The position numbers were made by a program, and so were the translations under genes. Of a DNA stretch of 64,000 nucleotides, positions 22,970-61,629 are shown in pieces. How positions within the stretch are numbered: the stretch's first letter is position 1; every line of letters starts with the position of its first letter. This DNA is from an uncultured Candidatus Saccharibacteria bacterium (GTDB lineage: Bacteria > Patescibacteriota > Minisyncoccia > Phycocordibacterales > EsbW-18): NCBI GenBank assembly GCA_964478705.1, contig CAYZIR010000002.1, positions 23,760-87,759 on the forward strand, read 5' to 3'. The notes under the pieces are model-generated. The model searched no databases and was not told the DNA's origin. It saw nothing but the letters and a program-made list of their open reading frames with translations.

Positions 22970-23147
22970 TGCGCCTTACCAGATTAACTTGGATAAGTAT
23001 GCCCCATAAGAAAAGCCAGTCTCACATTCAAGTTCGAGGTCCAAAGGGAAAATTTGTAAAAGATACTCCAGCAAATCGAAAAAAGAAGAATAACACCGTG
23101 GAACGAGTCCCTAATCCGGGATATGGAGATACCTAAGAATAACCAAC

Positions 23148-23176
23148 AATTCCGGCTTTATGCCGGAATTTGTGTT
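23148..23176 (+). terminator. rho-independent terminator of dnaK
   Basis: AATTCCGGC-tttat-GCCGGAATT followed by TGTGTT. Confidence 0.65.
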
Positions 23177-23201
23177 ATACAAGTGTCATGAATTCTTAAT
23201 T

Positions 23202-24686
23202 ATGCCTACTAAACGTCACACAATTTCTCTCAGCAAGCATCTGGATTTGACTCGCAAAAAATTGGAAAAGATTGGTGTTTTTGACGCAACCCTCGGTGTT
23301 GATACGAGACTCTTTATAGATCCTAAGCTTCTCATCAGATCTAAAATTCCCGAATTTAAGACGTCACGTTATAAAATACTGAAACATTTTGCCAAGCTGA
23401 TTCGCATTCATAAGCTATCTACTAAATCTTCACAGCTTGGCGAGATTGCGCTTTCAATGCTTGCGGTTCCCGAACCTCAAGGACTTGCGATTGGGTACGG
23501 ACATACGACGGATCGAGGTGTGGCAATTTCTGAATCAATCGCAAGAAAGATACTGTTACAGCTCAGTGAAATGATGTCTGTTGGATTGCAGGATAAAGAG
23601 TTGGTCGAACTAATGGCGCTGTTTGTGAAAGGATTTGCCTCCGACAGCATCAGTGATCTGTCGGCACATATTATTTATGACGATCTGTGTAGATATACAG
23701 AGCGAATAGCTAAAAAATTAAAGGTAGAAACAACACTTTTTGATGTAGGGGATAAAAAATACCAGTTACCTAAGCACCCTTTTAAAAACTCACAGGTAAT
23801 TTTTGTTCCTCACACTCTACTCAGCCCACTTCCTGTAGCTACTTCATGGGAGGAAATAGAAGCTGCTGCTGCACACAATCGAAAACTGAGGAAAACTTTT
23901 AGTGAAATTGTTAAGCCTAGTGTATATGCTGCGATCAAAGATTTGGAACGTCTGAATCCTGAGGAACGTGAGGATTTCAAGAGCGCGATAGAGAAGCTTG
24001 TTGAAGTCTATCAGGGTATTCGGGTATCGACATATAGCCTGCGACAAGATCGAAAGGGGTATTACGGCATCCAACCGTTTGTAGACAAGGAAGAGTCCAA
24101 TTATATTCCGTCTAACCTACCGACAACTGCGGAGGAACTAATCACTTCGGTTCGAGAGATTATCACACAGTACCAAAAATCTATTGAACATAATGCTGGT
24201 AATCGACTGCTCTATCATCGAACAAAATCAGGTTCAATTTTGAAAAATAAACCCCATAACGAAGACGTCGCTCAAAATTTGTTCTTCCAACTCGCTGATC
24301 AATACTGCTCAATGGCCAATATTCTTTTGTCCAGAGAGCCTAATGCGGGTATAGGTGCTGTTGATTTTTCATTAGGAAAAGGTTACGACTCTAAAATCTT
24401 AGTCGAAATCAAAAAATCTACCAACACTGGACTAGAGAGCGGCTACAAAAAACAAATAACGGCTTACGAGAAAAGCGAGTCATCAAAGCACTCTTTTTTT
24501 GTTGTGATTATCGTAAAGGAAGGAAAAAAGAAGAAAAATGAGTACCCCCCACAACTCCAAACGGTTAAAAATCTATACGACTCAAATGTCAGCAAATCTA
24601 TCTCTACTCCAGAATTGTTTATCATTGATGGCCTGATCTATCCCTCTCCCAGTAAGCGTCGTGAGAAAAGCAATACCTTATCTTAA
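23202..24686 (+). CDS. hypothetical protein with a PD-(D/E)xK-like motif near the C-terminus; candidate restriction endonuclease
   Basis: No recognised N-terminal domain; GAVDFSL...ILVEIKK fits D...ExK; AT-rich; first gene of a four-gene operon with an MTase. Confidence 0.4.
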   Translation: MPTKRHTISLSKHLDLTRKKLEKIGVFDATLGVDTRLFIDPKLLIRSKIPEFKTSRYKILKHFAKLIRIHKLSTKSSQLGEIALSMLAVPEPQGLAIGYGHTTDRGVAISESIARKILLQLSEMMSVGLQDKELVELMALFVKGFASDSISDLSAHIIYDDLCRYTERIAKKLKVETTLFDVGDKKYQLPKHPFKNSQVIFVPHTLLSPLPVATSWEEIEAAAAHNRKLRKTFSEIVKPSVYAAIKDLERLNPEEREDFKSAIEKLVEVYQGIRVSTYSLRQDRKGYYGIQPFVDKEESNYIPSNLPTTAEELITSVREIITQYQKSIEHNAGNRLLYHRTKSGSILKNKPHNEDVAQNLFFQLADQYCSMANILLSREPNAGIGAVDFSLGKGYDSKILVEIKKSTNTGLESGYKKQITAYEKSESSKHSFFVVIIVKEGKKKKNEYPPQLQTVKNLYDSNVSKSISTPELFIIDGLIYPSPSKRREKSNTLS

Positions 24687-24719
24687 TTTTATGGCCCTGT
24701 AGTAGGGTTGGGTTCAAAT

Positions 24720-25580
24720 ATGACCCCAGAACTGCTATATTTAAGGCCTCCCATGGCCACAAAAACGCAAACAAAGAAGGTGTTAGAGTCTGTTGGCCAG
24801 AAGCCGTATTTTCATGGTGATGATTTTGCCCTCTACCACGGCGATTCAATCGAACTCCTTTCAAAACTTCCTGAAAATTCAATCGACATGATTTTTGCCG
24901 ATCCTCCGTACAATCTCTCGAACGGAGGTTTTAGTGTTCATGCTGGACGCATGGTGAGTGTCAACAAGGGTGACTGGGACAGAAGTAAGGGTTTTCAAAA
25001 CGACTATGAATTTCATGTCCGCTGGCTCGAAGCCGTTCGTAAAGTACTAAAACCAGGAGGAACATTGTGGGTGAGTGGAACATATCACTCAATTTATCAA
25101 TGTGGCCATGCCATTCAATCGCTCGGATACCACATTTTGAATGATGTTTCGTGGTTTAAGCCAAACGCTTCGCCAAACTTAAGCTGCCGCTTCTTCACTG
25201 CAAGCCACGAAACATTAATTTGGGCACGCAAAGACAAGAAGGCAAAACACACCTTCAATTACGATAAAATGAAGAATGGTGATTGGGGTAGTGATTTCAT
25301 TAAAAAACCAGGGCTACAAATGCGCTCTGTCTGGTCTGTAGGAACACCAAAGCCGGACGAAAAGAAATTTGGTAAGCACCCGACACAAAAACCACTTGAA
25401 CTTTTGCGCCGTATTGTCCTGGCAAGTACCAAAAAAGGGGATATTGTTCTTGATCCATTCACCGGTAGTTCAACCACAGGTATCGCTGCTGCAAAAGAGG
25501 GTAGGAAGTTTATTGGTATTGATATGGAAAAGAACTACCTTGATCTTTCCGTTAAAAGGTTTAATTCTATTAAAATATGA
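24720..25580 (+). CDS. beta-class N6-adenine/N4-cytosine DNA methyltransferase
   Basis: Motif IV DPPY lies before motif I (DPFTGSSTTGIAA), i.e. beta-class permutation; the ORF track starts it at TTG 24708 but the first ATG is 24720. Confidence 0.85.
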   Translation: MTPELLYLRPPMATKTQTKKVLESVGQKPYFHGDDFALYHGDSIELLSKLPENSIDMIFADPPYNLSNGGFSVHAGRMVSVNKGDWDRSKGFQNDYEFHVRWLEAVRKVLKPGGTLWVSGTYHSIYQCGHAIQSLGYHILNDVSWFKPNASPNLSCRFFTASHETLIWARKDKKAKHTFNYDKMKNGDWGSDFIKKPGLQMRSVWSVGTPKPDEKKFGKHPTQKPLELLRRIVLASTKKGDIVLDPFTGSSTTGIAAAKEGRKFIGIDMEKNYLDLSVKRFNSIKI

Positions 25581-26098
25581 AAGAAGGTGGCTTTGGGGGA
25601 GGAAACACCATAACCGGATTAAACTTTGAAAAGGAGACGGATATCCTTTCTCTTTTGGCAACAAAAGCCGGATACGAAGTCAAAGACAACGTTATTTTCT
25701 ATGAAGGAAAGGAGGTTGCAAGAAACTATCGAAAAAATGGACTTTACAAGTTTCTCGAATCAAAAGGTGTCGACTATAAGAAAATTCTTTCCAAGAAACT
25801 CCTACCGGACGATGCACTTTATGTGATTTTAAACAACACTCTTTTTGTCATCGAAGTAAAGTTCCAAAAGGTTGCAGGTTCGGTTGACGAAAAGCTTCAA
25901 ACCTGCGATTACAAACGGAAACAGTACGCAAAATTGATGGCGCCTCTTAATATCGAGGTTGAGTATATTTATATTTTGAGCGACTGGTTTCGTGCAGAGT
26001 CTTATAAAGACACTTTAGATTACATAATCTCTGTTGGTTGTCAGTATTACTTCAAATATCTTCCTCTGCAAAAATTAGGATTGCCAGTACCGAACTAA
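25577..26098 (+). CDS. small PD-ExK-like protein, putative restriction endonuclease or partner subunit
   Basis: ATGA overlap with the MTase stop (translational coupling); DD...LFVIEVKFQK fits a D-x12-ExK core. Confidence 0.35.
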   Translation: MKEGGFGGGNTITGLNFEKETDILSLLATKAGYEVKDNVIFYEGKEVARNYRKNGLYKFLESKGVDYKKILSKKLLPDDALYVILNNTLFVIEVKFQKVAGSVDEKLQTCDYKRKQYAKLMAPLNIEVEYIYILSDWFRAESYKDTLDYIISVGCQYYFKYLPLQKLGLPVPN

Positions 26099-26106
26099 TC
26101 AAAAAA

Positions 26107-27789
26107 ATGCCTACAATAAATAATTCGACCAAGAAGACTCTTTCGAGTGTATTTGATAAGACTATTTTTAATATTCCTAGATACCAACGAGCTTACTCTT
26201 GGGAGGAAAGCAATTGGCGCGAATTGTGGGACGATATTAAAAATAATGTTCTAGAAAAAGACAAGGAGCATTTTCTTGGAGCAATAATTTATTATCATGG
26301 AGATTCCGGTGGCTCTCGATACACACATTATGAGGTCATTGACGGACAACAACGCATTACCACGCTCACAATCTTAATGCGTGTTCTATATGAAAAACTG
26401 AGAGAAAACAACGTTGAAGTCTATCAGAGATTTGCTGATGAACTCTATGAAAAATATATTGGTGATATAGAAAATGAAACTTTCTTCCTTAATTTAAGTA
26501 AAAAAGATCAAGTTTTCTTTAGAGAGTTTATCCAAAAGAGCGTTCCAATTAGAAAACAGGGGAAGTTAATTTCCAACAAAAGCATAAGAAAGTGTTATGA
26601 ATTTTTTGTAAAGAAAATCGATGACATTTCAAAAGAGAGCGGCATAAAAGAAATTGAAGAATTCTGTTGGGAATTAAAAAAGAAGCTCGAAACTAATTTG
26701 GTTTTTGTCGTCATTGATGTGAATACTGATGTAGATGCATATATGATTTTTGAAAGCATCAATTCCAAAAGACAAGGACTAACAACATCCGATCTTCTTA
26801 AAAACTATATATTTTCGGCTGCTGATCAATACGAAAAGATAAAGCCTGAATCAAAAAAATTATCAATTACAGAAGACGCATGGGACAGGATGGAACAAGA
26901 GCTAGACAGAATTGAAATAAACCAATATGTTCGACACTTTTGGATATCAAACTACGGAAAGGTTTTTGAGAAAGAACTTTATCAACAAATAAAACTCAAA
27001 TTCAATAATAATAACGAGGCGATATTAAACTTCTTTGAGAACGTCGTAACCGAGTCAGAGGCTTATTCGAGCATATTTAATGCAAACATTTCCAACTTTC
27101 CACAAGATGGTCTTCATGCGCTAGAACAACTACGTCAACTAAAAAATAGACAATACTACCCTTTAATACTATCTGCTTTGTCTGGGTGGCCTTCTCAGGA
27201 AGTTTCCGATCTCATAAAACAAATAGCTTCAGTGGCAGTTAGAAGAGCGCTTATTGGCAAAAACCCAAATGAACTAGAGAATTTCTTTGCTGAAAGCGCT
27301 TCAAAACTTAGAACCAAGAATGTTACCCCCCAAGATCTCATAACGATCCTTGCTACAGACTTCTGGATTGAAGACAGCGAGATCTTGGAAGAAATTAAAG
27401 ATACAGATTTCGAAGACCAGGAATACCTTGCAAAGTTCTTACTTAAGGAATTTGAAACAAGCAGTAATCCTGCCAATGAGAAAAGTCTTGGCAAGGTATC
27501 ACTTGAACATATTTTACCTAGAAATCCTGAGAGAGTTGAGGATTGGGATATGAAAGAAGATAGACAGACCGAGCTTGTTTGGAATATTGGCAATCTTGCC
27601 TTAATTGGTCAGACTTACAATAATAAGATGTCTAATAAATCTTTTTTAAAAAAGAAACCTTGGTTTAAGAAAACAGAAATTAAAACAACAGTTATTTTGG
27701 CAGAACACGAACAGTGGACAGAGAAGGAGATCTTAGAAAGAAACGCTCAGGTTGGAAAGTTTTTGATAAGATGGTGGGCAAAAAGTTAA
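26107..27789 (+). CDS. GmrSD-family type IV (modification-dependent) restriction enzyme-like protein (DUF262 + DUF1524)
   Basis: N-terminal DUF262 hallmarks (PRYQRAYSW, DGQQRITT); C-terminal His-Me/HNH-like block (SLEHILP...NIGNLALIG..YNN). Confidence 0.8.
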   Translation: MPTINNSTKKTLSSVFDKTIFNIPRYQRAYSWEESNWRELWDDIKNNVLEKDKEHFLGAIIYYHGDSGGSRYTHYEVIDGQQRITTLTILMRVLYEKLRENNVEVYQRFADELYEKYIGDIENETFFLNLSKKDQVFFREFIQKSVPIRKQGKLISNKSIRKCYEFFVKKIDDISKESGIKEIEEFCWELKKKLETNLVFVVIDVNTDVDAYMIFESINSKRQGLTTSDLLKNYIFSAADQYEKIKPESKKLSITEDAWDRMEQELDRIEINQYVRHFWISNYGKVFEKELYQQIKLKFNNNNEAILNFFENVVTESEAYSSIFNANISNFPQDGLHALEQLRQLKNRQYYPLILSALSGWPSQEVSDLIKQIASVAVRRALIGKNPNELENFFAESASKLRTKNVTPQDLITILATDFWIEDSEILEEIKDTDFEDQEYLAKFLLKEFETSSNPANEKSLGKVSLEHILPRNPERVEDWDMKEDRQTELVWNIGNLALIGQTYNNKMSNKSFLKKKPWFKKTEIKTTVILAEHEQWTEKEILERNAQVGKFLIRWWAKS

Positions 27790-27830
27790 AATAGGACAGA
27801 CACCTTTTTGAAAAATGGTAGAATGGGTGA

Positions 27831-28472
27831 ATGTACATCACCAAAATCGGCCATTGTTGCCTCCGTATCAAGGTTAACGGAGTAACATTCCTCACCGACC
27901 CGGGAGCGTATTCAGAAGGACAGGGGAGTGTCACGGGTATTGATATCATCCTTATCACCCACGAACATGGGGATCACCTCCACATCGAGTCGCTGAAAGA
28001 GGTGTTGAAGAACAATCCGACCGCAGACGTGATTACAAATGCAGGCGTCGGAGCTAAGCTTGGTGAAGCGGGGATTCCGTACACGATTTTGCAGGGAAGA
28101 GACTCATCCGAATCTCGAGGAATCATGCTCGAAGCATTCGATGCGAAGCACGAAGAGATCTTTGAGGACTTCGGTCAGGTGCAAAACACCGGCTATTTCA
28201 TTGCAGAGAAATTCTTTTATCCCGGCGACGCATTCAAAGACCCTGAACGCCCCGTCGATATCCTCGCGCTCCCCGTTGCAGGACCATGGTGCAAAATTGC
28301 TGATGCGGTTCACTATGCCCTGAGAGTGAAGCCTCGTGTCGCATTCCCGGTCCATGATGCAGGTGTCATTGAAGAGCGCCTCGGCAGTGCTCATGGCGCT
28401 CCCGCGCATTTCCTCCCAAAGCACGGCATTGAATTTGTCACTCTCAAAGAAGGTGATTCACACGAATTTTAG
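27831..28472 (+). CDS. MBL-fold metallo-hydrolase
   Basis: HEHGDH motif. Confidence 0.8.
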   Translation: MYITKIGHCCLRIKVNGVTFLTDPGAYSEGQGSVTGIDIILITHEHGDHLHIESLKEVLKNNPTADVITNAGVGAKLGEAGIPYTILQGRDSSESRGIMLEAFDAKHEEIFEDFGQVQNTGYFIAEKFFYPGDAFKDPERPVDILALPVAGPWCKIADAVHYALRVKPRVAFPVHDAGVIEERLGSAHGAPAHFLPKHGIEFVTLKEGDSHEF

Positions 28473-29224: not shown

Positions 29225-29509
29225 ATGACCACGAAGACCGAAGTGCCCGTCGCGATGATCACCCCCGCCACCGAAGGAAAGTGGAAGCTCGAAGGGTACG
29301 ACACCTTCGAAGGTGGTCCGGACGCGTACTATCCCATCGAGGGTGAGTACGATTCGCAGGCGGAGGCAGAAGCTGCCGCCAGCAAGCAACTTCAGAATCT
29401 TGAGAAGTCCCAGCCGAGCAGTTCCTCGGGTGGTCAGACCTTCCAAGGGATCCAAGATCGAATCTATACCGTGTCGCCGGACGGTACCCGTCGCCGTTTC
29501 ATCGGCTGA
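29225..29509 (+). CDS. hypothetical acidic protein
   Basis: Strong GGAGG SD; start trimmed from ORF 29198. Confidence 0.5.
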   Translation: MTTKTEVPVAMITPATEGKWKLEGYDTFEGGPDAYYPIEGEYDSQAEAEAAASKQLQNLEKSQPSSSSGGQTFQGIQDRIYTVSPDGTRRRFIG

Positions 29510-29543
29510 TCTTCCAGATCACAGACAAACCAAGGAGGAAGCC

Positions 29544-29870
29544 ATGTACGACGGATTCTATTGCCTTGTGAAGCATCAGGTCGCGGTGACGCCTCAGCTT
29601 CTCCGAAAGCTTCTCGAAAAAGCGCAAGTGATGGCGAGAACTCGGGAGAGCAGAAGCCACTTTCTCACTGAGGATGCCACCGGCGTCGTGACGACAGTCT
29701 ATCAGCACAACGTGATGGGCTCGATCGCCGGCATCCGCTTCGACGCCGAAGTGGAGAGCGATCTTGGCAAGGGTCACGTCGCTTTCCTCGTCGAGGAGAA
29801 TCATCTCGACGAAACAGACATGAGCACCTTGCGCTTCTTCAGGGTTCCCCAGGGAGCCTGGGTTCGCTAG
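29544..29870 (+). CDS. hypothetical protein
   Basis: AGGAGG SD 6 nt upstream; start trimmed from ORF 29313. Confidence 0.5.
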   Translation: MYDGFYCLVKHQVAVTPQLLRKLLEKAQVMARTRESRSHFLTEDATGVVTTVYQHNVMGSIAGIRFDAEVESDLGKGHVAFLVEENHLDETDMSTLRFFRVPQGAWVR

Positions 29871-29894
29871 ACTTATCCAACGGTTCATCACCGC

Positions 29895-29937
29895 ACCACC
29901 CGCGGAGGCCACGCCTTCTTGGGTGGTCTTTTTGTTT
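29895..29937 (+). terminator. rho-independent terminator
   Basis: ACCACCC...GGGTGGT stem followed by CTTTTTGTTT. Confidence 0.6.
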
Positions 29938-29957
29938 AGTTCAATATGCAGAGGAGC

Positions 29958-30227
29958 TTATTCTAAGTTTCTGCAGAAACCGAGAACCCTTGCACCGGTG
30001 TCGGTGAGGAGATGTTCAAGGGCAAGTCCGTTTCTCCGTTTTGTAATCAAACCAGCCAACGCAAGCTTCCGTAGGTGCTCAGATATCGTTCTGAAATCAC
30101 CTCGGAGTGTGTCGGCGATGTCGAGTCCTGATAGTTTTGGCCGGCGTTCAAGCACGAGCAATATGTTGAGTCGATGAATATTTGCACACCCCTTAAAAAT
30201 TCGTTCCAATTCTTTTTGGTTTTTCAT
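29958..30227 (-). CDS. ArsR/SmtB-family HTH transcriptional regulator
   Basis: 89-aa winged helix (NIHRLNILLVL...LSGLDIADTL...ISEHLRKL); TATACT -10 directly before the ATG, so leaderless. Confidence 0.75.
   Translation of the reverse strand: MKNQKELERIFKGCANIHRLNILLVLERRPKLSGLDIADTLRGDFRTISEHLRKLALAGLITKRRNGLALEHLLTDTGARVLGFCRNLE
29967..29980. promoter_or_regulatory. palindromic operator candidate copy 1, inside the 3' end of the arsR-like CDS
   Basis: Perfect 14-bp palindrome GTTTCTGCAGAAAC. Confidence 0.45.
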
Positions 30228-30246
30228 ACTAGTATAAATCTGCCTT

Positions 30247-30268
30247 CTTAGTTTCTGCAGAAGCTAAG
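30247..30268. promoter_or_regulatory. palindromic operator candidate copy 2, in the divergent promoter region
   Basis: 22-bp near-perfect palindrome CTTAGTTTCTGCAGAAGCTAAG. Confidence 0.55.
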
Positions 30269-30290
30269 AATACTCATTTGGGATAAAGGG

Positions 30291-30842
30291 GTGGTAAAAT
30301 GCGAGTCTATGAAAAAACCGACGCGTCAAAAACGAACAAAGATGGTTGTCGTCAACGACTCTATGCAAAAGGGCTATCGGTATGAGCTCGTAGAACCAAT
30401 CGGTAAAAATTTTGATCCCACATTCAAACCAGATCTGACGCCTAAAGAAATACTCAAGCTCGGCATCTTCGGCGGGCTTCACCTGAACGATTGCACAAAA
30501 GAGTTTCCGAAGAGCTGGTTTGCTGGCGTGCAGTTTTCAAGCACAGGAAAACACGAAGCGAAGCTAAACTATTTTGGTGTAAACGCGTCGCAATCATTGG
30601 CTGAATGGAAACGTAAGGGCTGGGTTTATAAAGATGACCCGCGAGGGTGGTTTCAGTGGTACTGTCGCTACTACATGGGTCGCCGTATCCCGAAAGAAGA
30701 CGCGCGACAAATCAAACGCTGGAAGGCAATCACTCGTCATATTGCCCAAATCAAACACAACTGCAGAGCGGGGGATATCATGTGTCGCCCCGTCCAACGC
30801 CAAGCGCTCCTCCACTGGGCATACGATTCACGAAAATTTTAA
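30291..30842 (+). CDS. hypothetical protein with a conserved W/Y/R-rich C-terminal block
   Basis: GTG start; GWFQWYCRYYMGRR...IKRWKAITRH block of unknown family. Confidence 0.45.
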   Translation: MVKCESMKKPTRQKRTKMVVVNDSMQKGYRYELVEPIGKNFDPTFKPDLTPKEILKLGIFGGLHLNDCTKEFPKSWFAGVQFSSTGKHEAKLNYFGVNASQSLAEWKRKGWVYKDDPRGWFQWYCRYYMGRRIPKEDARQIKRWKAITRHIAQIKHNCRAGDIMCRPVQRQALLHWAYDSRKF

Positions 30843-30855
30843 ACTTCTTAAGCAT

Positions 30856-30895
30856 TTGCACATTCTCAAGTTCTTAAGAACTTGAGAATGTGCAA
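30856..30895. repeat. 40-bp perfect palindrome
   Basis: ttgcacattctcaagttcttaagaacttgagaatgtgcaa; all 20 base pairs verified by hand. Confidence 0.9.
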
Positions 30896-30951
30896 GTGTG
30901 CTGTGAGAGGTTGGGCGGGTTTTCTGAGCTCTATTCAAGCCTATTTCTATT

Positions 30952-30973
30952 CTCTATTTCTGCAGAAACAGAG
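30952..30973. promoter_or_regulatory. palindromic operator candidate copy 3, upstream of gene 31081
   Basis: CTCTATTTCTGCAGAAACAGAG, with a perfect 12-bp core. Confidence 0.5.
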
Positions 30974-31080
30974 AAGCCTCTTTTGTTAATTCGCACCATT
31001 TCACATTCTTGTCTTTTTAAGTCCGAGGCGTATACTCGCGGGAGATTGAACCAACCGATAGACGGGAAAGGAGATGACTC

Positions 31081-31626
31081 ATGAAAGCGATCGTTGGATA
31101 CGATAGGGATTTTGGTGTGCAGTTCTTCCGTCGAACGTTCGCAGAACTAACATCACAAGGTATCGATCTGTGGAAAGCGATTACAGAGGAAGAGCGAGAA
31201 TACATCGCTCAAAGGCTCGGTGACACGCTGGTTTTGCATCCATATTCTAAACTAGGGTCACCCTGGATTTCAGACGATTTTAAGAAGCTTTTCAAAGATG
31301 GGAAGTACTGCGTCGATCGGGTGACACACGACCGTGCTGAACTCATGGCAAATCAAATTCTGATCTACCAAGGCATCGTCTCCCTGGGAGGAATCTGGAA
31401 ATTCAGAGATGGTCGTTCGACCGGTACGACTCGTGCTTTCTACGAAGACGTTGCGGCAAAGCTCTTTCGTATCGCTGCTCGGTGGCCTTATCTGAACTCC
31501 GACGAACGGAGGGTTCTGAATGAGGTGGGAGAACACACGAGCTTGTGGATTGATATCTTGGCTCAGGTGATGGGGAATGACTATCTCGAAGAACTCGGGA
31601 CAGGCAGTCCAATCGTTCTCGCCTGA
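31081..31626 (+). CDS. hypothetical protein
   Basis: AGGAG SD 8 nt upstream; terminator downstream. Confidence 0.55.
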   Translation: MKAIVGYDRDFGVQFFRRTFAELTSQGIDLWKAITEEEREYIAQRLGDTLVLHPYSKLGSPWISDDFKKLFKDGKYCVDRVTHDRAELMANQILIYQGIVSLGGIWKFRDGRSTGTTRAFYEDVAAKLFRIAARWPYLNSDERRVLNEVGEHTSLWIDILAQVMGNDYLEELGTGSPIVLA

Positions 31627-38059: not shown

Positions 38060-39007
38060 ATGTCTAAAAAAATCTTACTTTCAGGAATACAGCCGAGCGG
38101 TGTTTTGCACATCGGAAACTATTTTGGTGCGATGAAGCAGTTTGTTGATATGCAGGAAGACTACGAATCCTACATTTTTATCGCCAACTATCACGCGCTC
38201 ACAACACTTCAGGATGCCGAAAAGCTCTCACAGTACACACTTGATAGCGTGATTGACCACTTGGCGGTTGGTCTCGACCCGAAGAAGGCAACAATTTTCG
38301 TCCAGTCGGATGTTCCACAGGTCACCGAGCTCACGTGGATCTTCAATACGCTCATCACCGTGCCATACATGGAACGCGCGGTCGCTTTTAAAGACAAAGT
38401 CGCGAAGGGGATTGAACCGACCATGGGACTGTTTGACTATCCGGTCTTGATGGCCGCAGATATTCTCTTACCGTTGGCGGACATCATCCCGGTTGGTCAA
38501 GATCAAAAGCAACACGTCGAATACGCACGCGATATCGCACAGAAGTTCAACAACACGTTTGGTGAGGTATTTAAAATTCCTGAAGCAAAGATTTTACCTG
38601 AAGTCGCAACGGTGCCTGGCACTGACGGACAGAAGATGAGCAAGAGCTACGGCAATACGATTCCGCTCTTCTCCACACGCGAAGAAATCACCAAAGCGGT
38701 TATGTCGATCGTGACCGACTCATCGGGCGGTATCCCGGTGAACGTCTACAACCTCCACAAGTGCTTCCGCCCTGAAAGTGAATTAAAAGAGCTCTACGAA
38801 GCTAACAAGGGAAGCTACAAGACGCTCAAAGAGGCGTTGATTGAAGATATTGATGCGTTTATCGCACCACTTCGCGAACGCCGTGCAGAGATTGCACAGG
38901 ACAAAGATGCGGTTATCGCAATGCTCAAAGAAAACGGTGAGAAAGTTCGTGCTCGCGCAGAGAAGGTGATGGATGACGTGCGAAAGAAGACGGGGTTGAA
39001 GTTCTAA
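38060..39007 (+). CDS. trpS: tryptophanyl-tRNA synthetase
   Basis: HIGN variant and KMSKS motifs. Confidence 0.9.
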   Translation: MSKKILLSGIQPSGVLHIGNYFGAMKQFVDMQEDYESYIFIANYHALTTLQDAEKLSQYTLDSVIDHLAVGLDPKKATIFVQSDVPQVTELTWIFNTLITVPYMERAVAFKDKVAKGIEPTMGLFDYPVLMAADILLPLADIIPVGQDQKQHVEYARDIAQKFNNTFGEVFKIPEAKILPEVATVPGTDGQKMSKSYGNTIPLFSTREEITKAVMSIVTDSSGGIPVNVYNLHKCFRPESELKELYEANKGSYKTLKEALIEDIDAFIAPLRERRAEIAQDKDAVIAMLKENGEKVRARAEKVMDDVRKKTGLKF

Positions 39008-59709: not shown

Positions 59710-60030
59710 TTAGTTAGATAGAATAGAGTCAACTGCAATCGTCGCAAATGGCTGGCGGTGTCCGCGTTTCTTGTGGTATCGGCTCTTTGCCTTGTATTTG
59801 ACCACTACAACTTTCTTTGCGCGACCCTCAGATTCGTAGGTTCCAGTGACCTTTGCACCTGCGATGTATGGTGTGCCGATGGTTGTCGTCTTGCCATCAT
59901 CAACGAGGAGCACTTTGTCGAAAGCGATTTTCTCTCCCGCCTTTGCGTCCTTAATGATTTCAGTGGTGAAGCGGCTCTTCTCGGTAACGAGATACTGCTT
60001 TCCGCCGGTCTGTATAACTGCGAATTTCAT
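59710..60030 (-). CDS. rplU: 50S ribosomal protein L21
   Basis: MKFAVIQTGGKQY L21 N-terminus. Confidence 0.9.
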   Translation of the reverse strand: MKFAVIQTGGKQYLVTEKSRFTTEIIKDAKAGEKIAFDKVLLVDDGKTTTIGTPYIAGAKVTGTYESEGRAKKVVVVKYKAKSRYHKKRGHRQPFATIAVDSILSN

Positions 60031-60098: not shown

Positions 60099-60138
60099 AC
60101 CCTTATTCTCAAGTTCTTAAGAACTTGAGAATAAGGGT
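60099..60138. repeat. 40-bp perfect palindrome sharing its inner 26 bp with the palindrome at 30856
   Basis: acccttattctcaagttcttaagaacttgagaataagggt; all 20 base pairs verified by hand. Confidence 0.9.
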
Positions 60139-60240
60139 CACTTCAAATTCTATAGAACGACAATATATCGTCAAATATGCTCGTTCTTCGAGAAAAACCA
60201 ACGACACCAGCATGCTACAATTGAAGGCAATCACACTCCT

Positions 60241-61629
60241 ATGAAGAACCGTTCCCCGTGGCTCCACCAACTCCGCTCTGATCGCGAGTCAGCACGACTC
60301 TCTCACGATATCTCAACCGATATCGCGATCGTCGGAGCGGGTATCGCAGGTGTCGCGACCGCATTCTTCACGCTCAAGTACACAGACAAAACAGTTACCC
60401 TTCTCGAAGCCTTTAAGCTTGCCCACGGTGCAACAGGACACAATGCAGGACAGGTTACCAGCTATTTTGAGCGAGGTTTTGCCAGTATCTCAGATGAGTT
60501 TGGATTAAAGCTTGCTGCCGAAGGACAAAAAAGTGTTGAAGGTGCGTGGGAACTCCTTGATGAGATGTATACCGACGCAGGGCTCACTATCCCCTTCTCC
60601 CGATTCGAAGGGCATGCTGGCCTCTCAACATTCGACCAAGTCATTTTTCATTTGCGTAACAATCATGCGCGAAAGAATGCGGGTCTTCCTGTCGAGACAT
60701 TTCGCATCTCAGAGAATGCACCCTTTCTTTCAAGTATCTCAGACGAGTACGAGGGGCTTTTCTCGATTGTTCCTCATGCAGACATTCTTGCACTCCTTGA
60801 AACACACGATGAACGTTTTTTTGCCACAATTTCCTATCAAAAAGGATGCTTGAACAGTGCGCTCTTTTGTGAAGAAGTAATTTTGTTCCTCCTCAAACAC
60901 TACCCTGACCGATTTGCCCTTTTCGAACACACGCCTATCGCAAAAATTATACTGCATGATGACAAAGCAATACTTGATGCAGAAACGCACACCATCAGCA
61001 CTTCTCGTGTTGTTCTTTGCACCAACGGTTTCGACAATATTCATGTGATTACTGCCGATGGACTTGATATCGACACGAAGCTCCACCACAACATCCACGG
61101 TGTTGTTGGGTATATGTCGGGGTATCTTGAGAAGATGAACAAACTCCCGGGCGCATGGAGCTATCTTCTTCCGCCCGATGAAGCCGATGAGTTTTATCGA
61201 AGTGACCCCGATACCGGTGATCCATACTTTTTGATTACACGACGCCCCTATGTGTACGAAGAAAAAACTGATCACAATTTGATTTCTGTAGCAGGACCCG
61301 AAGTGTCTCTCCCCGATAGACGACACTATTCGCGAGACACCGACTACCCTGATGCAATCACCGATGAAATTGATCGGTTTGTGAAGCAAACGTATAACAT
61401 CGAACCTAACAAAAAGATTGACTATATTTTTACCTGGCACGGATTGATGGGCTACACAAAAAATCTGGTGCGCTTGGTCGGGCCCGAACCGACACATCCA
61501 GTACTTCTGTATAACCTTGGATGCAATGGTGTCGGCATCCTTCCGTCGGTGTTTGGCGGGCGCAGGATTGCTGACGTCATCGCAGAACGTCCCGTTGCTC
61601 CATCGATTTTTGATATTCCAGGAAAATAA
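60241..61629 (+). CDS. FAD-dependent oxidoreductase (DadA/DAO-like)
   Basis: DIAIVGAGIAGVATAF Rossmann dinucleotide-binding motif. Confidence 0.75.
   Translation: MKNRSPWLHQLRSDRESARLSHDISTDIAIVGAGIAGVATAFFTLKYTDKTVTLLEAFKLAHGATGHNAGQVTSYFERGFASISDEFGLKLAAEGQKSVEGAWELLDEMYTDAGLTIPFSRFEGHAGLSTFDQVIFHLRNNHARKNAGLPVETFRISENAPFLSSISDEYEGLFSIVPHADILALLETHDERFFATISYQKGCLNSALFCEEVILFLLKHYPDRFALFEHTPIAKIILHDDKAILDAETHTISTSRVVLCTNGFDNIHVITADGLDIDTKLHHNIHGVVGYMSGYLEKMNKLPGAWSYLLPPDEADEFYRSDPDTGDPYFLITRRPYVYEEKTDHNLISVAGPEVSLPDRRHYSRDTDYPDAITDEIDRFVKQTYNIEPNKKIDYIFTWHGLMGYTKNLVRLVGPEPTHPVLLYNLGCNGVGILPSVFGGRRIADVIAERPVAPSIFDIPGK

Follow-up and report, generated by a model that had tools for sequence, protein, structure and literature searches.

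A small regulatory gene ringed by copies of one palindrome raises the question of whether its product reads those sites, and of which genes would then fall under its control. The window analysed here, a 64,000-nucleotide stretch of contig CAYZIR010000002.1 from an uncultured Candidatus Saccharibacteria bacterium, holds such a gene on its minus strand (29958-30227). It encodes an 89-amino-acid (aa) protein with lysine at position 54 that Pfam, AlphaFold2 (AF2) and Foldseek place with the small winged-helix regulators of the ArsR/SmtB fold. We think it likely that this sensor-less protein binds 26-bp operators of 12-2-12 geometry as a homodimer and represses its own gene along with its neighbors.

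The first-pass annotation of this DNA had described three palindromes, GTTTCTGCAGAAAC at 29967-29980, CTTAGTTTCTGCAGAAGCTAAG at 30247-30268 and CTCTATTTCTGCAGAAACAGAG at 30952-30973, sharing the core TTCTGCAGAA. All three are present at these coordinates, with exact matches to the core at 29969, 30253 and 30958. Chance recurrence of the core was tested across the 64 kb: the three matches fall inside 1 kb with none elsewhere, where 0.16 would be expected, and a count of three was reached in 0 of 100 dinucleotide-preserving shuffles. The core is found in all three palindromes as claimed, but the true unit is not a 12-mer. A repeat finder returned a 26-mer, TTCT-N4-TTCT-GC-AGAA-N4-AGAA, which is a 12-2-12 palindrome with a variable centre, and GC-centred copies lie at 29961-29986 (site 1, TTCTAAGTTTCTGCAGAAACCGAGAA), 30245-30270 (site 2, TTCTTAGTTTCTGCAGAAGCTAAGAA) and 30950-30975 (site 3, TTCTCTATTTCTGCAGAAACAGAGAA). 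Searching with the centre left free (TTCT-N4-TTCT-NN-AGAA-N4-AGAA) added two exact matches, both TA-centred, at 30863-30888 (site 4, TTCTCAAGTTCTTAAGAACTTGAGAA) and 60106-60131 (site 5). The set of three GC-centred sites therefore stands, but the window holds five sites of two classes, each of the form TTCTNNNNTTCT-NN-AGAANNNNAGAA. When up to three mismatches were allowed there were six matches against 0.57 expected, a number that no shuffle gave; the one beyond the five exact sites, at 38661 and with three mismatches, probably arose by chance. Sites 4 and 5 share one identical 30-mer and each sits inside its own longer perfect palindrome, of 36 bp at 30858-30893 (46 bp, 30853-30898, if near-perfect pairing is counted) and of 38 bp at 60100-60137.

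The placements originally given for the palindromes, in the 3' end of the regulator gene, in the divergent gap and upstream of the gene starting at 31081, also hold. Site 1 covers the last nine codons of the regulator gene (GTT CTC GGT TTC TGC AGA AAC TTA GAA, then TAA), which are read as V-L-G-F-C-R-N-L-E and encode helix a5. Site 2 occupies the divergent control region, a 72-bp gap (30228-30299) in which it lies 17 nt from the regulator ATG (30227) and 29 nt from the ATG (30300) of the open reading frame (ORF) named ORF183. Sites 4 and 3 both fall in the 238-bp gap between ORF183 and ORF181, with site 3 located 106 bp upstream of the ORF181 ATG (31081). Site 5 lies between the divergent genes for ribosomal protein L21 (rplU) and an FAD-dependent oxidoreductase. 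A bare inner core, ATTCTATAGAAC (TTCTATAGAA), is found at 60148-60157, 17 bp past site 5, without the outer TTCT/AGAA blocks, and may be a degenerate or half-strength site.

The assignment of the protein to the ArsR family was borne out by its structure. The AF2 monomer model (mean predicted local distance difference test score, pLDDT, 91.9) is an ArsR/SmtB-fold winged helix of topology a1-a2-a3-a4-b1-b2-a5 in which a4 is the recognition helix (helices at residues 2-14, 17-28, 34-40, 45-57 and 76-87; strands at 61-66 and 69-74). In a Foldseek comparison with the PDB the best 38 matches were all of ArsR/SmtB type, including CadC, CzrA, SmtB, ArsR, HlyU, SqrR, NolR, AntR and, at rank 37, the ArsR-like AspA; PagR ranked a little lower, and the first outsider, a MarR, came at rank 39. 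The top matches CadC, CzrA and SmtB had template modelling (TM) scores of 0.82-0.90 (CzrA and CadC, 0.86-0.90), with CzrA at TM 0.90 and a root-mean-square deviation (rmsd) of 1.2-1.3 A. Sequence profiles placed the protein at the edge of known families: its score was just above the cut-off for Pfam HTH_5 (22.8 bits versus 22), just below it for HTH_20 (26.6 versus 27) and below it for the NCBIfam ArsR/SmtB model NF033788 (42.7 versus 55).

If the protein reads the palindromes, gene and site should be found together in other genomes, and this was the case. A word-indexed protein search returned three relatives only, all with the motif. The ortholog at 90% identity (L001-L005) keeps sites 1 and 2; in L001 its ORF183 homolog is also followed by a TA-centred site, in which the spacers differ from those in the window but the TTCT/AGAA blocks do not. 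In the ortholog at 60% identity (L006-L009) a perfect 26-bp palindrome lies inside the 3' end and a promoter site with a TT/AA centre precedes an unrelated divergent gene, and the relative at 56% identity (L010) has a site ~40 nt upstream of its start. The sites are thus retained at all three levels of identity despite differing neighbor genes. In the window, L001 and L006 the regulator unit lies between HAD hydrolase and DnaJ genes. The genome of the 90% ortholog (the assembly of L003) also carries a solitary GC-centred site with the T at position 8 that is typical of the lineage, TTCTGGGTTTCTGCAGAAACCCAGAA (L043, 2914-2939); it is flanked by divergent genes read as a HIT-family hydrolase and RecJ, and is likely an extra regulon member in this sister genome.

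The association extends far beyond these orthologs. A scan of DNA alone, covering one genome per species (596 Gb) with the pattern TTCTNNNNTTCTGCAGAANNNNAGAA of 18 fixed bases, gave at least 118 loci, where a 4^-18 calculation predicts ~9 by chance. Patescibacteria lineages made up about three quarters of the record titles among the matches listed, with a few naming other phyla, which may be mislabelled bins or chance matches. Although the pattern did not require them, A at -1 and T at +27 were present in 125 of the 134 matches listed, giving the consensus aaAACATTCTnAcATTCTGCAGAATgTnAGAATGTTtt. A regulator homolog of 88-100 aa touched the site, with its start 9-100 nt downstream or its stop at the site, in 33 of the 118 loci listed, and no other gene family recurred comparably beside the sites in these loci. 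The reverse scan used a peptide pattern taken from the family alignment, independent of both the DNA motif and residue 54, on metagenome contigs, with a site called at two or fewer mismatches in 16 fixed positions. It found 80 loci, and in 79 of them a site lies beside the gene: upstream in 73 (18-63 nt before the start), at the 3' end in 72 and at both ends in 66. An exhaustive profile-free search returned 275 clusters at 50% identity (E <=0.001); nearly all of the best 150 are 80-130 aa long and align over most of the query.

A third comparative test of the pairing, after gene beside site and site beside gene, came from the centre of the operator. Across the family the centre may be GC, TA, TG or CA, and the two sites flanking one regulator were of the same class in 83 of 85 pairs, namely 49 YR/YR (Y, pyrimidine; R, purine) and 34 GC/GC, with two mixed. 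Both classes occur in about 20 loci, where sites of the other class lie away from the regulator. We compared 102 distinct proteins and found that residue 54 of the recognition helix (window numbering, S49-E50-H51-L52-R53-K54) follows the class of the centre: arginine is present in 50 of 51 proteins beside YR-class sites (TA/TG/CA), and the 51 GC-class proteins have Lys (24), Ser (15), Ala (5), Val (3), Arg (1) or another residue (3). The mutual information between residue 54 and centre class is 0.87 bit, versus 0.34 for the next best column. The rule holds between proteins that are 75-78% identical, and in the protein-selected metagenome set alone Arg54 occurs in 0 of 17 GC-class and 49 of 50 YR-class proteins. 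This covariation is the strongest evidence that the regulator would read the site. The window regulator, with Lys54 and flanking GC sites, agrees with the rule and should therefore read GC sites 1-3; for the TA-centred sites 4 and 5 the probable reader is an Arg54 paralog whose gene lies beyond the window. A third operator, with inner blocks ATTCG-YG-CGAAT where the others have ATTCT-NN-AGAAT, accompanies a divergent subfamily with the recognition helix SFKSTSxHL (L098 4098-4783, L084 1817-2101, L160 910), whose L098 member is transcribed divergently from a Lys54 family gene.

The palindrome that the first-pass annotation had placed within the regulator's own coding sequence is real and a conserved feature of the family. 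Within the subfamily nearest the window protein, the last sense codon marks the exact end of the 3' site, and the tail encoded by this in-gene operator reads [IV]-L-K-F-[LC]-R-x-L-E. Codon use in the tails was compared with that in the bodies of the same genes (24 distinct genes in 25 rows; one row is an upstream site, which leaves the picture unchanged). Phe was TTC in 25/25 tails compared with 31% in gene bodies, Arg was AGA in 25/25 compared with 21% and Glu was GAA in 23/25 compared with 65%; Ile or Val was xTT, and Leu was CTN, in all 25. The in-gene operator is under selection at the DNA level beyond that on the peptide. In-gene sites have non-complementary spacers (CAAA versus CATT). 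A co-directional gene starts 200 nt or less past the 3' site in 48 of 65 evaluable relatives, often 0-25 nt from it, and in general the site would therefore control the gene that follows; in the window, L001 and L006, as in a minority of relatives, that gene is convergent.

We propose that a homodimer would bind operators of the form TTCT-N4-TTCT-GC-AGAA-N4-AGAA; the two-fold symmetry of the sites implies an oligomer that is symmetric as well. By occupying site 2, in the control region shared by the regulator and ORF183, it would block RNA polymerase and so cause both negative autoregulation and co-repression of ORF183, and through site 3 the upstream region of ORF181 would come under its control. 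Site 1 would be the family's second operator, which in most relatives lies 0-60 nt before the next co-directional gene; here it may act as a roadblock, as a cooperative partner of site 2 or as a promoter for an antisense transcript. Residue 54 would read the central dinucleotide, directly or indirectly, with Lys, Ser or Ala paired to GC and Arg to TA, TG or CA. The distance from a family site to the regulator start codon is 17-63 nt, and to a downstream start codon often 0-25 nt, so that the sites must overlap core promoters. With start codons no more than a few tens of bases away, promoter occlusion or a block to elongation is expected, and negative autoregulation with repression of neighbors appears the most likely mode. 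Each half-site contains two TTCT blocks 8 bp apart, and a site may hold one dimer on the inner pair or two interdigitated dimers, each on TTCT-N10-AGAA. The nAGAAT units resemble -10 hexamers, suggesting that the site itself may contain promoter elements. The first-pass annotation had seen here the architecture of a dimeric repressor. The link between family and site and the 12-2-12 geometry bear this out; physical binding, repression as opposed to activation, the number of dimers per site, the inducing signal and the paralog are what we infer from sequence. Looping between sites 1 and 2 was considered and the claim dropped, since their spacing is variable (284-285 bp in the window and L001, 276 bp in L006, 314-429 bp in other relatives) and the phase is therefore not conserved.

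Several observations weigh against binding and repression of this kind. The proposed Arg54 paralog was not seen, the Lys54 regulator being the only family gene in the 64 kb. No sensor residues of ArsR type (a3/a3N Cys, a5 Asp/His/Glu, a reactive Cys pair) were found in the regulator or in the family alignment, which has no conserved Cys and no conserved His, Asp or Glu in a5; aligned with the CadC-like Lmo1102, the regulator has KLSGLDI opposite ELCVCDI. With the known sensor sites absent, the protein is therefore a predicted ArsR-fold DNA binder with nothing pointing to a metal sensor, and a metal or metalloid sensor was ruled out by this lack together with the lack of resistance genes nearby. 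The block spacings (ATTC-N4-GAAT for the inner pair, N12 crosswise) differ from the ATTC-N8-GAAT operator that SqrR binds 1:1, so that the stoichiometry cannot be read from the sites. Covariation between the halves of a site is found at positions of low information (z 8-13), even between sites of one locus, and exceeds what independent recognition of half-sites would lead one to expect. Spacer recognition specific to each paralog could contribute to this; quasi-palindromes also tend to be perfected by template switching, which could contribute as well. Site 3 lies 34 bp upstream of the -35 element of the only promoter predicted for ORF181, a sigma-70-like TTGTCT-16-TATACT on the plus strand at 31009-31036 that comes from a consensus scan whose count was not above shuffle expectation. 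This position suits an activator, or a roadblock to upstream transcripts, better than simple occlusion. Finally, a co-directional target for site 1 is lacking in the window, L001 and L006; in the window this is because the 108-aa gene that follows it (plus strand, 29544-29870; its exact product is in public gene calls) is convergent with the regulator. An antisense 137-aa ORF (29499-29912) was considered as a co-directional target of site 1 and set aside: it is absent from public gene calls, in which the 108-aa and 94-aa products of the region are present, although codon scoring of the 108-aa gene against the antisense ORF was ambiguous (0.146 versus 0.091).

The palindromes also differ in how well they would fold as RNA. 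Those at sites 4 and 5 are predicted to form hairpins of -40 kcal/mol (z -9.4) and -28 kcal/mol (z -9.3), and those at sites 1 and 3 give weak folds (z -2.1 and -1.6, with ~3-7% of shuffles as good). Site 4 may also serve as a transcript-end hairpin for ORF183, and a structural role for the long TA-centred palindromes may exist. No terminator-like element was called at any site in 29800-31200; the strong hairpin of site 4 has no adjacent T run, and an intrinsic terminator would combine a G+C-rich stem with a U tract. Across the family, 124 of 321 unique sites are perfect 26-mers and many extend to 32-44 bp. A search of RNA families gave only spurious matches of miRNA models to the long hairpin.

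How do other explanations fare against these data? The most serious is that the single Lys54 regulator binds all five sites, the TA-centred ones being weaker or stronger variants, and that there is no paralog. We regard this as possible but doubtful. The window does contain one family gene only, the L006 regulator has a GC site at one end and a TT/AA-centred site at the other, and two mixed GC/YR flanks and two exceptions to the residue-54 rule are on record; set against these are the same-class pairs (83/85), the tracking of the YR centre by Arg54 (50/51) and the ~20 loci in which the other class lies away from the regulator. It is improbable, in our judgement, that the protein binds the sites as an activator or dual regulator in the manner of HlyU. 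HlyU-type activators are among its structural neighbors, the centre of site 3 is ~80 bp upstream of where transcription would start from the one promoter predicted for ORF181, and the -10-like nAGAAT outer and inner units could make a site part of a promoter. Most sites, however, are so close to start codons (0-60 nt; 17-63 nt for the regulator ATG) that a bound dimer would occlude polymerase, and the characterised 12-2-12 operators are repressor sites (PMC8790569).

The remaining alternatives we consider very unlikely. One is a role of the palindromes as structured nucleic acid (transcript hairpins, terminators or DNA cruciforms), with a secondary link to the regulator gene. The 36-38-bp perfect palindromes holding sites 4 and 5, with their folding z-scores of about -9, the covariation of the halves at variable positions (z 8-13) and the many perfect 26-mers (124/321), with many sites extending further, would fit this view. 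Covariation with a protein residue, however, is something that RNA structure cannot explain; in addition, folding of sites 1 and 3 is weak, the terminator scan of 29800-31200 made no call at a site, in-gene spacers are non-complementary, and there is no need for a terminator at site 5 or at the many family sites that precede genes or separate divergent ones. It is just as unlikely that site, gene and site together form a small mobile or recombination cassette whose ends are the inverted repeats and whose footprints are the solitary sites. Although a gene bracketed by two copies of one palindrome, and the occurrence of unit and solitary sites beside very different genes across lineages, would suit such an element, the protein has a plain ArsR fold with no transposase or recombinase present, its place between HAD hydrolase and DnaJ genes is kept in the window, L001 and L006, the distances from sites to start codons are short and fixed, and there are neither target-site duplications nor multiple identical copies per locus. 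Least probable of all is that the palindromes are read by another protein, with the ArsR-like gene just one of its targets. The 85 of 118 DNA-selected loci listed that have no family gene within the stretch covered could be read in this way, but a site accompanies the gene in 79 of 80 protein-selected loci, a residue of the recognition helix covaries with the operator centre, and divergent subfamilies carry matching operator variants, such as ATTCG-YG-CGAAT beside SFKSTS.

Repression by an ArsR-fold homodimer has well-studied precedents, with which the window regulator can be compared. ArsR/SmtB repressors bind 12-2-12 inverted repeats overlapping promoters (PMC8790569). The regulator resembles the metalloregulators CzrA, SmtB, CadC and ArsR in core fold and size (TM 0.82-0.90, rmsd 1.2-2.2 A over 84-88 residues), in the 12-2-12 operator at the promoter and in the position of its gene adjoining the targets. 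It differs in sequence (22-28% identity, with scores at or below curated family cut-offs), in lacking the a3/a3N Cys motif, the a5 Asp/His site and nearby metal-resistance genes, in its operator blocks (TTCT/AGAA, theirs being TGAA/TTCA) and in having a second operator over its own 3' end. The persulfide sensors SqrR and BigR (TM 0.78-0.83) read ATTC...GAAT half-sites with the recognition helix, and the solved SqrR structure shows a single dimer on ATTC-N8-GAAT, reaching into successive major grooves, with specificity set by one helix position (bioRxiv 10.64898/2026.05.15.721447). In the window the ATTC/GAAT units, four per site, are spaced N4 (inner), N12 (crosswise) and N20 (outer) rather than N8, the family has no conserved Cys pair, and residue 54 lies about one helical turn past Ser-x-His, compared with i+5 in SqrR (alignment by eye). 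The minimal regulators PagR (TM 0.82-0.85) and SdpR are small winged-helix autorepressors without metal sites. The window regulator scores below the cut-offs for both (SdpR, NCBIfam NF033789, 29.1 versus 100; PagR, NF052532, 13.3 versus 170, E = 0.067) and is thus not a member of either, and their targets and operators are unrelated to its own. AspA, an ArsR-like protein that binds the centromere of the archaeal plasmid pNOB8, shares the ~90-aa length and the minimal ArsR fold (TM 0.78-0.83) and binds a palindrome, as the regulator is predicted to do. However, it works with ParA/ParB partition genes on a plasmid, whereas the setting in the window is chromosomal, Pfam found no partition families among the regulator's neighbors, and the family's sites lie at fixed short distances from start codons.

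The candidate targets within the window are the regulator itself, ORF183, ORF181 and, via site 5, rplU or the FAD oxidoreductase gene. ORF183, the divergent neighbor and putative target of site 2 (plus strand, 30300-30842; the public gene call starts at 30309 and gives 177 aa), belongs to a family with >8000 homologs at ~70% identity in metagenomes of the candidate phyla radiation (CPR). It had no match in Pfam, NCBIfam, PHROG or PADLOC, and its AF2 model was weak (pLDDT 65) with no fold match in the PDB. In the family alignment 57 columns are invariant, among them WFQWYCRYYxGRR and several Cys and His; this conserved protein deserves a study of its own. ORF183 was rejected as a conserved target, since the 118 DNA-selected loci listed contain one homolog, 4 kb from the site. 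ORF181 (plus strand, 31081-31626; 181 aa), the putative target of sites 3 and 4, has 5 homologs and likewise no family match in Pfam, NCBIfam, PHROG or PADLOC. In another lineage (L133-L135, 2194-4561) a TspO gene, an ORF183 homolog, a gene for an 80-aa membrane protein and an ORF181 homolog stand in a row on one strand, the ORF181 homolog ~550 bp past that of ORF183, without regulator or sites. The two families are therefore probably functionally linked, and the regulator probably joined the pair in the window lineage. At site 5, the start of rplU (minus strand, 59710-60030; Pfam Ribosomal_L21p, E = 2.5e-31) is 75 nt away and that of the DAO-type FAD-dependent oxidoreductase gene (plus strand, 60241-61629; Pfam DAO, E = 3.4e-22) is 109 nt away; another family site lies upstream of an L21 gene in L100.

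No core regulon emerged across the family: Pfam applied to 91 site-adjacent genes gave no family with more than two members. Read from their products, a few kinds of gene recurred a few times downstream (MurC, NUDIX, a zinc-ribbon protein, RNase H, acylphosphatase and TspO) or otherwise beside sites (YfiH, histidine phosphatase, DnaJ, PolA and MreB). The most recurrent gene directly downstream encodes a 500-590-aa protein with an N-terminal zinc ribbon (CxNCKxxFxIExxDFxFYEKIxVPxPTxCPxCR) and was found in six loci (L023, L064, L125, L140, L190, L207); MurC follows a family site directly in four (L089, L167, L182, L189). A DNA-repair theme among the targets (RecJ, DinB, Nth, XseA, MGMT-like, NUDIX) was set aside, having no statistical support.

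The wider neighborhood of the regulator comprises genes for a HAD hydrolase, a metallo-beta-lactamase (MBL)-fold protein, orphan ORFs and DnaJ. The HAD hydrolase gene and the regulator are separated by two small plus-strand orphan genes, of 94 aa (29225-29509) and 108 aa, each of which forms a singleton cluster in a collection of 15 billion proteins. At this position L001 and L006 encode unrelated membrane proteins; the slot is thus variable. The MBL-fold (Lactamase_B_3) gene at 27831-28472 lies 1.5 kb from the regulator, and in L211 (1779-2174) a gene whose product has an N-terminus similar to that of the window MBL-fold protein lies directly downstream of a family regulator, which may be coincidence or the remnant of an older arrangement. 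Just upstream of the locus, a low-GC island at 23000-28000 (0.36-0.41 versus ~0.47-0.50 elsewhere) carries a GmrSD-type restriction endonuclease gene (26038-27789) and looks like horizontally acquired defence DNA. With this gene 2 kb away, the regulator was considered as a component of a defence system. PADLOC gave only generic winged-helix similarity to Csa3, and the link was dropped because the GmrSD gene is in a separate low-GC island. A TATACT lies 3 nt before the regulator ATG, with no Shine-Dalgarno sequence; the geometry gave no clean fit to a leaderless start and we make no claim for one.

In kind the system is known, a putative autoregulated repressor of ArsR type with 12-2-12 operators. 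What is new is a sensor-less, CPR-wide family, the layout operator-gene-operator, an operator translated as the C-terminal helix and a one-residue switch for the operator centre. In the searchable literature the motif appears only in primers with PstI sites, and we found neither an ArsR regulon from the CPR nor an account of this regulator family. Because few of these bacteria are cultured and their regulators are rarely annotated, transcription control in the CPR is almost unexplored. The regulator-operator pair is backed by hundreds of independent loci and comes with a falsifiable rule of specificity at residue 54, testable with the purified 89-aa protein and short oligonucleotides without culture of the organism. 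The 26-bp motif can be used to map regulons and flag promoters in CPR metagenomes. The locus also offers a natural case of a predicted protein-binding site inside the gene of its putative binder, where it constrains that gene's codons, and a compact example of how paralogous repressors would avoid cross-talk. More broadly, the balance seems to us even on whether this is a Patescibacteria-wide family of ~89-aa sensor-less ArsR-fold regulators with a stereotyped operator-gene-operator layout, a second operator often translated as the C-terminal helix and a residue-54 switch, whose paralogs could run separate, interleaved regulons in one tiny genome; such a family would rank with the small number of general systems that control transcription in these reduced bacteria, and seems to be undescribed.

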